Virus record (IMG/VR): IMGVR_UViG_2513020041_000003
Reading direction: 5' to 3' (one strand)
Length of the DNA stretch: 3,166 bases
Origin: a virus
Lineage: Duplodnaviria > Heunggongvirae > Uroviricota > Caudoviricetes
Within the stretch, counting starts at the first letter, position 1, and each line of letters starts with the position of its first letter. The position numbers and the translations under genes are program-made. Positions 379 through 3,166 of the stretch are shown here, in pieces. The notes beneath the pieces were generated by a model, which searched no databases, was not told the DNA's origin, and worked only from the letters and a program-made list of their open reading frames with translations.

Positions 379-591
379 TCATGAAAGGTAAACATTGGCA
401 GCTGAAGGGCCACGCAGACCATTTATCCGGCAAAATTCCACGCGTAATCCGGTGGTAATTTCTTCTGCATCGCGGAGATTGAGCGCTGAAACATGAAGCT
501 GGACATCGATACGACCATCGGATGGGGTGATAAGACCCTTGCCGCTTTTGCCGTCAAAGGTTTTGACAATTCCTGTCATTTTACGGGACAA
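379..591 (-). CDS. cspF: Cold-shock protein, CspF/CspH subfamily (70 aa)
   Basis: The 70-aa product has the cold-shock-domain hallmarks ([14 protein letters not shown]-terminus, [20 protein letters not shown]-terminus). The apparent start codon is TTG at 589-591, preceded by AAGGA with a 6-nt spacer and an in-frame TAA four codons upstream. The first ATG is 4 codons downstream (577-579). It is divergent from cspB, as I recall for Qin. Confidence 0.85.
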
Positions 592-891
592 AAAAATTCC
601 TTAATACTGATAACTTGGCGCACTATACACACGTTCCTGAAGAAAGCTATAGTTTTTTGATGGGGTTGAAGATGGCTGGATGTCTAAAATAAACATTGCT
701 TCATATGTTCAACTATGCGTTAATGATTGCGTCGGTTTGAAGAACAGACGATATACGAAGTAGTTTACTAAAGCAGTTCTCATTTCAGGTGTTATTCACT
801 TATTCCTTCTTTGAGTCTCTCCAATTAAGTACGAAGTCGTTTCTGTTATGCAAACCATTTATGCCGAAAGGCTCAAGTTAAGGAATGTAGA
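592..891. promoter_or_regulatory. Divergent cspF/cspB control region (promoters and long 5' UTRs, not mapped precisely)
   Basis: A 300-bp AT-rich intergenic region lies between the two divergently transcribed csp genes. Both genes share the ribosome-binding context TTAAGGAAT about 6 nt before the start codon. Csp-family mRNAs are known to have long 5' UTRs. No confident -35/-10 assignment could be made. Confidence 0.35.
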
Positions 892-1107
892 ATGTCAAAT
901 AAAATGACTGGTTTAGTAAAATGGTTTAACGCTGATAAAGGTTTCGGCTTTATTTCTCCTGTTGATGGTAGTAAAGATGTGTTTGTGCATTTTTCTGCGA
1001 TTCAGAATGATAATTATCGAACCTTATTTGAAGGTCAAAAGGTTACCTTCTCTATAGAGAGTGGTGCTAAAGGTCCTGCAGCAGCAAATGTCATCATTAC
1101 TGATTAA
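892..1107 (+). CDS. cspB: Cold-shock protein CspB-like (71 aa, CspA family)
   Basis: ATG start at 892 with AAGGAA (880-885) 6 nt upstream. The product [38 protein letters not shown]... carries the RNP1-like KGFGFI and RNP2-like VFVHF motifs of the CspA family. Confidence 0.92.
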
Positions 1108-1218
1108 AATTCATCGCTCGTCTGTATACGATAACGAAGAAGGCTGATGCCTGAGTAGAGATACGGACAGAGTAGTGAATATTGGATCTCTTTAATAAAA
1201 AGTAAGGAGGTCCAATAC

Positions 1219-1254: not shown

Positions 1255-1388
1255 TCAGGAAAAGTATGCTAACCATTGTGGTGAAGTGCAGGTTTGCTGC
1301 ATGAATAGTTTTACAGCAGAAGCTAACTGCTGGCATGGCAAAACAAAGTGCGTAAGTGGATGACTCCCACAAAAAGCACCACAATCTC

Positions 1389-1416
1389 AAACCCGCTCAG
1401 GCGGGTTTTTTATTAT
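1389..1416 (+). terminator. Rho-independent terminator, probably bidirectional
   Basis: Stem AAACCCGC (1389-1396) / GCGGGTTT (1401-1408), loop TCAG, then a T-tract TTTTTTATTAT on the plus strand. On the minus strand the same stem is followed by TTTGAG, a weaker tract. It sits between the cspB-side unit and the convergent zinc-ribbon ORF. Confidence 0.7.
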
Positions 1417-1470
1417 CTGCTTTAAATATATTATTAAAATATAAAAAATACTTGTTACTAATAAAATCAA

Positions 1471-1641
1471 TCAGGCTACAGCTTTAAGATTTGTCTGGAA
1501 TACTTTGTTGCAATGAGGGCAGATCAAAAGGGCACCTTTTTGTACTCTTGAAAAACTGTGTTCTGACTCTTGGGTGCAGTTTGGGCAGGAACATTTAACG
1601 AGATAATTACGGCGTGATTTTGAGTTTTTACGTTCTGACAT
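1471..1641 (-). CDS. Small C4 zinc-ribbon protein (56 aa; alternative 73-aa form from ATG at 1690-1692)
   Basis: MSERKNSKSRRNYLVKCSCPNCTQESEHSFSRVQKGALLICPHCNKVFQTNLKAVA has CxxC-x18-CxxC and a basic N-terminus. The internal ATG (1639-1641) is preceded by AGGAAAAG with a ~7-nt spacer, whereas the upstream ATG lacks a good SD and adds a hydrophobic 17-aa extension. It may correspond to a small putative zinc-binding protein annotated in K-12 Qin (ynfU, if I recall correctly), but I cannot verify that. Confidence 0.55.
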   Translation of the reverse strand: MSERKNSKSRRNYLVKCSCPNCTQESEHSFSRVQKGALLICPHCNKVFQTNLKAVA

Positions 1642-1860
1642 AGGCTTTTCCTGTATAAATGGCCGTATACAGTACACTAAATATGAAAACATTTCTCGTA
1701 TTATTATTTTATATATGACTTTCTTTCAAAATAATTACCCACATTTTTAATGTGTATGTTTTTTTAGCGCCGTTGAGAACAACGTGTGCTGTCAAAACTA
1801 CCCCGTAGACTCCGATCTTTTCAAACATATTGCACCATCCGTGTACATCGGGGTGAGGAT

Positions 1861-2076
1861 ATGAAATCAATGGATAAGTTAACAACAGGTGTTGCCTATG
1901 GCACATCGGCGGGTAATGCTGGTTTCTGGGCATTGCAGTTACTCGATAAAGTAACTCCGTCACAGTGGGCTGCAATCGGTGTGCTGGGTAGCCTGGTTTT
2001 TGGCCTGCTGACGTATCTGACAAATCTTTATTTCAAGATTAAAGAAGACAGGCGTAAGGCTGCGAGAGGAGAGTAA
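1861..2076 (+). CDS. essQ: Class II pinholin, phage 21 S-type (71 aa) with dual-start motif
   Basis: N-terminus MKSMDK gives two in-frame starts (Met1 at 1861, Met4 at 1870), as in the S21 antiholin/holin pair. It has two predicted TMDs ([19 protein letters not shown], Gly/Ala-rich; [23 protein letters not shown]) and a charged C-terminal tail [24 protein letters not shown] purine tract lies immediately upstream. The gene name is by remembered synteny with K-12 Qin. Confidence 0.9.

Positions 2077-2392: not shown

Positions 2393-3166
<774 letters not shown>

Follow-up and report, generated by a model that had tools for sequence, protein, structure and literature searches.

The small protein YnfU of Escherichia coli was found by ribosome profiling with retapamulin and Onc112, in which its gene gave a Ribo-RET start peak, and was detected by western blotting after SPA tagging on the chromosome (Weaver et al., bioRxiv 10.1101/511675). 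Its level was the highest among the newly identified small proteins of MG1655, and it was present in cells grown in LB at 37 C without prophage induction (bioRxiv 10.1101/511675). The same authors saw a 'pair of zinc knuckles' in the protein, and threading matched it moderately to the PA0128 zinc domain (Weaver et al., bioRxiv 10.1101/511675). A second, independent detection of ynfU came from PIRT-seq (PMC12350097). Both ynfU and its translation, as well as the zinc-knuckle motif, have been in print since 2019, and curated families exist in Pfam (PF23499) and NCBIfam (NF038384), of both of which YnfU is the founding member. The later literature on ynfU offers only 'possible metal binding' or a place among the uncharacterised genes of the Qin prophage. 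In the literature that mentions the gene, YnfU is called uncharacterised, and neither a functional experiment on the protein nor cold induction of ynfU is reported.

We analyzed a stretch of 3,166 nucleotides (the window) that is Qin prophage DNA of E. coli K-12, with 100% identity to MG1655. In its K-12 equivalent the window begins just 3' of the antiterminator gene quuQ/ydfT and ends inside rzpQ of this defective prophage. Window positions 1300-1900 are matched in 1,661 of 5,426 complete E. coli genomes. The minus strand carries a 73-codon ORF at 1471-1692, within which a 56-amino-acid product is read from an internal ATG at 1641-1639: MSERKNSKSRRNYLVKCSCPNCTQESEHSFSRVQKGALLICPHCNKVFQTNLKAVA. 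The resulting coding region, at 1471..1641 on the minus strand, consists of 56 codons and a TGA stop at 1473-1471. Its equivalent in K-12 is named ynfU in RefSeq (b4776, WP_211180497.1, 'putative zinc-binding protein YnfU'). The product contains the motif CPNC-x18-CPHC, in which C19-x2-C22 is separated by 18 residues from C41-x2-C44, with C17 as an additional, non-ligand cysteine. The protein has a basic N-terminus and a strong positive charge overall (ten lysines and arginines against three aspartates and glutamates, pI 9.6).

A sequence-only reading of this DNA had described the ORF as a small basic C4 zinc ribbon and proposed a profile search for zinc-ribbon families. That search matches the product to PF23499 at E = 3.5e-31 (107.3 bits, cut-off 27) and to NF038384 at 79.4 bits (cut-off 36), both well above the cut-offs, and the ORF does not differ from this family, which has no assigned function. 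Small ORFs are common in the AT-rich window, and the size of this one proves little by itself because 35 ORFs of at least 30 amino acids are present. It is virtually certain that the ORF is ynfU and that the gene is real. The sequence-only reading had thus correctly spotted a known gene, to which it attached a functional guess that is mostly unsupported. The ribosome profiling and epitope tagging that it put forward as a check on translation had already been published, with a positive outcome (bioRxiv 10.1101/511675; PMC12350097).

The family is small and phylogenetically narrow. A word-indexed search of 5.8 billion proteins identified 49 YnfU clusters, and an HMM scan of all 1.84 billion cluster representatives returned only 46 proteins at E <= 0.001. 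A second search, using the distant hits as seeds, showed the family to be confined to Enterobacterales, with members in Escherichia, Citrobacter, Klebsiella/Raoultella, Enterobacter, Kosakonia, Cronobacter, Hafnia, Serratia, Yersinia, Erwinia, Brenneria and Edwardsiella. The members fall into about three subfamilies, each of 50-60 amino acids and each basic (pI 8.5-9.8). YnfU has the form typical of the family, a stand-alone protein of ~50-60 amino acids with CPxC-x18-CPxC and a SEHS..RV.K loop.

Taking one genome per species, we assembled 74 ynfU loci, 73 of which are intact. Every one of the 73 intact homologues begins at an ATG equivalent to that at 1641 and keeps C19, C22, C41 and C44, the outcome expected by the sequence-only reading, which had pointed to cysteine conservation as a further check. 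C17 is absent from distant members. On the protein surface, conservation is highest in the SEHSFSRVQKG loop and not in the basic tail, which varies between subfamilies. The median pairwise dN/dS (Nei-Gojobori) is ~0.10, and pN/pS is 0.23 in the ynfU frame compared with 1.1 and 1.9 in the remaining two sense frames; the low ratio is limited to the ynfU frame and, partly, its antisense mirror frame. YnfU is a real, translated and strongly constrained Cys4 micro-protein.

The sequence-only reading listed the ORF at 1471-1692, with translation from the ATG at 1639-1641. An ORF of that extent exists, but only 1471-1641 is coding, and the 17-codon upstream extension is not. A 73-amino-acid product starting at the ATG at 1692 was rejected, as the 73 homologues all share the downstream ATG and the extension contains an in-frame TAA in several genera, which read GTGTAAGGT in this block. 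The variation in the block is not codon-like, falling at first and third codon positions, and the block is best read as a DNA signal, not protein. The long 73-codon ORF, and several over-extended database entries, exist because this promoter-like block happens to be in the ynfU frame.

The regions upstream of ynfU from 45 loci align over their last ~60 nt, and the sequence farther out is unrelated. Going towards the ATG, the conserved elements are an A-rich stretch, nnGCwA, 17 nt, GTG-TAnnGT, CC, and ATCAGGA. A Shine-Dalgarno sequence, AGGA (1649..1652, minus strand), can be read 7 nt 5' of the ATG, and the CAGGA block to which it belongs is nearly invariant among the 45 aligned regions. The TAnnnT hexamer at 1669..1674 (minus strand) is TACTGT in the window and TATGGT in most genera, and its T, A, G and T are invariant in the 45 upstream sequences, which come from many genera. 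This hexamer is a candidate -10 element of ynfU, with a predicted transcription start near 1662. Seventeen nucleotides 5' of it lies a weak -35-like block (1692..1697, minus strand), GAGAAA in the window and GAGCTA or AAGCAA elsewhere, with an invariant G (G27 of the upstream alignment); it may serve as the -35 of ynfU.

An alternative promoter-like site, TTGAAA-18-AATAAT at 1700..1729 on the minus strand (10/12 matches), looks better than the conserved block as a promoter, yet it is specific to Escherichia; its use would put the transcription start near 1693. We regard this site as a candidate only, because promoter-like sites are not more frequent in the window than expected from shuffling (8 found, 7.0 expected). 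RNAalifold found no consensus pairs in the 5' leaders of the 45 sequences. A CTGTATA/TATACAG hairpin over the Shine-Dalgarno sequence was rejected as a conserved leader element, being Escherichia-specific, and a sigma-32-like or sigma-S-like reading of the conserved block was set aside by eye, since its spacing and -35 do not fit. Judging from the aligned upstream regions, ynfU appears to be a self-contained, monocistronic gene, accompanied everywhere by a promoter-like block and a Shine-Dalgarno sequence of its own.

An initial AlphaFold2 model based on 37 close sequences was too weak (pLDDT 64) and was superseded by a model based on 54 diverse family sequences, which has a mean pLDDT of 76 and values of 82-88 over residues 11-50. 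The modelled order is a beta strand (14-18), the C19/C22 knuckle, a second strand (25-29), a helix (30-35), a third strand (38-40), the C41/C44 knuckle and a final strand (47-49). The N-terminal 12 residues form a low-confidence tail. In the predicted structure the two CxxC knuckles lie at the turns of two beta hairpins, the arrangement that defines a zinc ribbon. According to the model, YnfU is very likely a single zinc ribbon with a disordered, positively charged N-terminal tail, and its two CPxC knuckles presumably hold one zinc ion. We infer zinc binding because the four cysteines are invariant and the modelled fold is a ribbon.

The sole structural neighbours returned by the fold search were small zinc ribbons, namely LysW, L37Ae, eS27, ZitP and IBR domains, and the Vps36 NZF is also among the closest folds. 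A two-knuckle beta-ribbon topology, small size and an often basic character are shared with L37Ae, eS27, L44e, LysW and the Tim15 DNL finger. The best match in a PDB sequence-profile search had E = 0.035, and the best zinc-ribbon matches in it were Tim15 (E = 0.16), L44e (0.29) and PA0128 (0.4); the DNL zinc finger family (PF05180) scored under its gathering threshold. We were able to reproduce the weak likeness to the N-terminal zinc ribbon of PhnA/YjdM (PA0128, PDB 2akl) reported by Weaver et al. The match to Zn_Ribbon_YjdM (PF08274) has E = 1.3e-4 and 22.4 bits, under the gathering score of 30.8. However, PhnA has an additional C-terminal domain that YnfU does not.

The gene order in the window is cspF (-), cspB (+), ynfU (-), essQ (+), ydfR, rrrQ and rzpQ. 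The cspB gene and its cspA-type thermoregulator leader lie at 731..1123 on the plus strand, with the CDS at 892-1107; the leader matches Rfam RF01766 (158.8 bits, E = 8.5e-43), and cspB is the conserved convergent partner of ynfU. Divergent from cspB is cspF (379..591, minus strand), the third member of a recurrent ynfU-cspB-cspF block. On the other side, ynfU sits 219 bp upstream of the holin gene essQ (annotated essD; 1861-2076, plus strand) and is divergent from it. The sequence-only reading had placed the gene correctly between a convergent cspB and a divergent holin, and its description of ynfU as antisense to the late transcript holds as a statement of orientation, quuQ and the lysis genes being on the plus strand.

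A GC-rich hairpin (1389..1408) separates cspB from ynfU at their 3' ends and is a strong terminator for cspB and a marginal one for ynfU. It had been taken for a bidirectional terminator. That description is plausible and half borne out: a terminator scan calls the hairpin on the cspB (plus) strand but not on the ynfU strand, where it is followed by TTTGAGAT. The hairpin is kept between the two genes in Escherichia, Citrobacter and Superficieibacter, with the long T-run always on the cspB side.

The 74 species loci were searched with the window's own proteins, and all neighbouring ORFs were clustered. The only widely shared neighbour of ynfU is a cold-shock-domain gene. A csp gene is found within 470 bp of ynfU at 49 of the 74 loci; the median gap is 236 bp. 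It is convergent with ynfU in 31 cases (as in the window), in tandem downstream in 10 and upstream in 8. The genes flanking the ynfU-csp pair on the outside form at least 31 distinct pairs, so the pair recurs in many independent settings. Phage PHB10 and the distant Hafnia subfamily show the pairing again, and a csp gene is also near the Cronobacter ynfU. Physical linkage of ynfU with csp genes thus extends across lineages. The link is not obligatory, because no csp gene is nearby at 25 of the 74 loci (Kosakonia, Atlantibacter), and the loci of the Yersinia, Serratia and Citrobacter subfamilies are also without one.

Other small genes are often part of this neighbourhood, with YdfK-like genes beside ynfU at 14 loci and YmcF-like genes at 8. 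The YmcF/YnfQ proteins (PF23641) resemble YnfU in being tiny stand-alone CxxC...CxxC proteins of Enterobacteriaceae that occur in the same prophage-associated islands, and their genes adjoin csp genes (cspG, cspI) as ynfU does. However, their cysteine spacing and motifs are unlike those of YnfU, and homology between the two, which we considered, is not detectable (hhalign probability 2.7%).

In most Enterobacterales other than E. coli, ynfU is to all appearances an ordinary chromosomal gene. Inspection of cluster representatives showed ABC transporters, dehydrogenases and fliF among its other neighbours and, in Klebsiella/Raoultella, a LysR regulator and acetolactate synthase. Among the distant subfamilies, the Yersinia locus reads fadR-nhaB-dsbB-ynfU and that of Citrobacter mgtS-ynfU-dcp. 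In Serratia ynfU adjoins a small TolA-like gene and icd, and in Hafnia the order is ynfU-DUF2058-CSD. The Cronobacter gene is near queH, with a csp gene and a YmcF-like gene 2 kb away. Lysis genes resembling EssQ, RrrQ or RzpQ occur within 6 kb of ynfU at only 11 of the 74 species loci.

YnfU is also encoded in eight phage records. In HannyBb a 3.1-kb block 98.5% identical to the window lies between Q and the holin gene. The many tiny ORFs annotated in the Q-ynfU interval of this phage were considered as a possible tRNA array; the region contains no tRNAs and holds cspB and cspF, which are unannotated. The phages Tritos, 2H10, PhiR42_1 and PhiR63_1 have the same Qin-type arrangement, as judged by the same tblastn pattern as in HannyBb. 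Klebsiella phage ST13-OXA48phi12.4 carries a ynfU with 59% identity, divergent from a different holin and 3' of a Q homologue, without a csp gene, and in PHB10 the gene lies with a cspB/cspF pair close to int and umuDC. The record descriptions indicate that ynfU-bearing phages are inducible, having been isolated as plaque-forming or induced phages. YnfU has no convincing PHROG match (best E = 0.0023) and no match in PADLOC, and for want of the latter a role in anti-phage defence was rejected.

The Q-S interval and the int-proximal sites occupied by ynfU are what we take to be classical lambdoid moron positions. Like lambdoid morons such as bor, lom and stx in the Q-S interval, ynfU has its own promoter-like block and a hairpin, and is oriented independently of the late operon; its protein is seen in uninduced MG1655. 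It differs from them in that members of the YnfU family are mostly chromosomal and not phage-borne. From what is established for lambdoid phages, an insertion site for morons in the Q-S interval accounts better for the location 5' of the holin than regulation of lysis does.

Considering these contexts together, ynfU is probably an accessory gene of a csp module and not a lysis regulator. In E. coli it rides on Qin-type lambdoid phages and prophages in the Q-to-S interval, opposite to late transcription, and on phages it would behave like a moron that is active in the prophage before induction. It would belong to a mobile module linked to csp genes of the cspB/cspF/cspI type, often accompanied by YmcF- and YdfK-like genes, and not to a lysis cassette. 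The basic ribbon would most likely act by binding RNA, the ribosome or a partner protein, in the same physiology of stress or low temperature in which the csp genes work. On balance we favour this reading as a whole, a self-contained accessory gene, counting as a moron where a phage carries it, within a csp-linked module of small genes, with somewhat less assurance than its first element. The adjacency to csp genes could also arise from co-mobility of small AT-rich accessory genes and not from shared function.

This analysis adds to the published record the true start and likely promoter of ynfU, a clear negative on its proposed roles as a lysis regulator and TraR/DksA relative, and the linkage with csp genes, often with YmcF- or YdfK-like genes, in many independent contexts. 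The linkage is the only fresh lead, and for this small orphan protein, encoded in the best-studied of all bacteria, it supplies the first concrete, cheaply testable hypothesis.

That YnfU itself binds RNA or the ribosome is a tentative suggestion, which we rate as well short of an even chance. An RNA, ribosome or acidic-protein partner is suggested because the positive charge is conserved (pI 8.5-9.8). Nucleic-acid binding is deduced only from this charge and the fold class, and that class includes the purely protein-binding LysW, IBR and NZF ribbons.

It is possible, though a minority view in our estimation, that the micro-protein YnfU binds other proteins or handles metal, for instance as a zinc-dependent adaptor or inhibitor of a larger host protein, with no direct role in nucleic-acid binding and with its csp adjacency reflecting shared mobility. 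Most characterised bacterial small proteins bind larger proteins, as Weaver et al. have argued (bioRxiv 10.1101/511675). The ribbons of LysW, IBR and Vps36 NZF among the closest folds, and the better conservation of the SEHSFSRVQKG loop than of the basic tail, point in the same direction. However, the genomic context suggests no partner, csp being the only conserved neighbour, and every subfamily stays basic.

A more specific version of the csp-linked reading would have YnfU act as an RNA- or ribosome-binding zinc ribbon in functional partnership with Csp paralogues carried on phages and islands, its gene and those of the cspB/cspF type moving as a unit among Enterobacterales chromosomes and lambdoid phages and serving RNA metabolism at low temperature or under stress; on phages, its antisense placement in the Q-S interval might also damp read-through of the late operon. 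Taken with all its parts this proposal is doubtful. A position-specific role in the Q-S interval, such as antisense interference, keeps a small chance because the Klebsiella phage provides a second, independent Q-S placement without a csp gene.

We consider it improbable that ynfU acts mainly at the RNA level, its transcription or mRNA opposing Q-dependent late read-through by interference or antisense pairing and so quieting the lysogen, with the function of the protein being separate. In two unrelated Q-S intervals the gene runs antisense to the late operon, it is strongly expressed in the lysogen, and its weak own-strand terminator makes read-through antisense to cspB possible. However, selection acts strongly at the protein level and the gene is mostly found outside phages. 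The phages that carry it are inducible, and Q-modified RNA polymerase is highly processive.

The sequence-only reading had proposed that YnfU, with a cysteine spacing resembling TraR/DksA-type fingers, regulates lysis-gene expression. On this view it would be a TraR/DksA-like or other DNA- or RNA polymerase-binding regulator of the adjacent essQ-ydfR-rrrQ-rzpQ genes. YnfU is basic, and shares with the TraR/DksA family (PF01258), whose TraR members are frequent on phages and plasmids, four cysteines and a similar gap of ~17-18 residues. However, the YnfU model has four beta strands and a 6-residue helix in place of a helical finger, and nothing in it corresponds to the N-terminal helix or coiled coil of TraR/DksA. 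The zf-dskA_traR family was not among the best 25 of 30 Pfam matches, the remaining five of which have E > 0.48. A BLAST comparison of YnfU with a DksA sequence entered by hand gave no alignment at E <= 100, and neither TraR nor DksA appears in three fold-search lists. On the Pfam scan, BLAST, the predicted secondary structure and the three fold searches, kinship with TraR/DksA was rejected, and nothing points to a TraR-like mode of action.

The genomic position had been the other ground for proposing a lysis regulator, and ynfU is indeed divergent from the holin gene both in Qin and several inducible Escherichia phages and, with a different holin, in Klebsiella phage ST13-OXA48phi12.4. In lambdoid phages, however, transcription of S starts at pR', beside Q, and no promoter immediately 5' of S drives it, so the logic of a divergent promoter has no obvious target. 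The scarcity of lysis genes near ynfU (11 of 74 species loci), the many members in core chromosomal loci without phage genes, and the lack of a PHROG match better than E = 0.0023 also argue against this role, as does the abundance of YnfU in uninduced MG1655, whose Qin is defective. We therefore regard regulation of the lysis genes as very improbable. That the ORF is no gene and arose by chance, as might be supposed from the 35 ORFs of at least 30 amino acids in the AT-rich window, is a negligible prospect given the profile matches, conservation in 73 species, a dN/dS of 0.10 and two independent experimental detections.

The cspF-cspB-ynfU-lysis block of the Qin prophage is bounded on both sides by a 63-bp direct repeat. 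Positions 1-63 of the window match a segment from the interior of rzpQ with 100% identity (5848-5910 in the ynfU-bearing locus L001), so that a fragment of an Rz gene lies immediately 3' of quuQ; a terminator-like hairpin comes next, at 64-85. The second copy is the segment of rzpQ itself, of which window positions 3147-3166 cover the first 20 bases, with the rest continuing into rzpQ (L001 5848-5910). The repeat is a relic of an earlier recombination in Qin. The lysis cassette within this block carries an unusual additional gene, ydfR (DUF1327, E = 1.1e-53; 2081-2392, + strand), which separates the gene for the P21-type holin from that for the lysozyme.

The ~280 nt between the cspB stop codon and the cspB terminator (1108-1388, + strand) are well conserved in Escherichia, Citrobacter and Superficieibacter. 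Conserved stretches on the + strand include 1108-1170 and 1270-1370, and within such stretches there are hairpins, for example at 1286-1302 and at ~1315-1343 (CAGCAG...CTGCTG). Comparison of 1108-1388 with Rfam gave weak, sub-threshold matches only (isrK-like, E = 0.75). The region could be a structured 3' UTR or the source of a 3' UTR-derived sRNA. It also contains an 11-codon ORF (MKQWLAYLAKS; 1203-1254 with its Shine-Dalgarno sequence, + strand) preceded at a distance of 7 nt by a perfect Shine-Dalgarno sequence, TAAGGAGGT. The ORF with this ribosome binding site is restricted to E. coli, being deleted in Escherichia sp. E1V33 and unconserved in Citrobacter, and it is therefore probably not a conserved gene.

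Two kinds of small gene are found divergent from and upstream of ynfU. YmcF-like genes (PF23641, Cys4, ~62-67 aa) occupy this position in 8 species, and YdfK/YnaE-like genes (~75 aa) do so in 14 species. Examples of these small genes are found at 5408-5874 of the ynfU-bearing locus L059 and in similar loci, and ynfQ is found at L001 6703-6891. Together with the csp genes, the YmcF-like and YdfK/YnaE-like genes form a recurring island of cold-shock-associated micro-genes. A small protein (~125 aa) whose C-terminal domain is of the TolA/TonB kind is encoded near ynfU, by chance or through linkage, in Serratia, Hafnia and Klebsiella phage ST13-OXA48phi12.4 (loci L083/L084, 4393-4776; L081, 7215-7598; and the Klebsiella phage, L077, 986-1354).

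In phage HannyBb (PP925841; locus L076, ~3800-6850), the interval from the antiterminator gene Q to ynfU contains intact cspB and cspF genes that are 100% identical to those of K-12 and are not annotated as such. In the deposited annotation this interval is instead filled with ~20 very short ORFs, each 30-55 codons long and labelled as a 'hypothetical protein'. A search of the interval for tRNAs returned none.

Several ynfU loci (L004, L025, L035 and L037) come from assemblies titled Veillonella parvula MAG, Vagococcus, Kocuria and Bacillota MAG. The sequence of these loci is typical of Escherichia or Enterobacter, and the contigs are therefore most likely the product of contamination or mis-binning.
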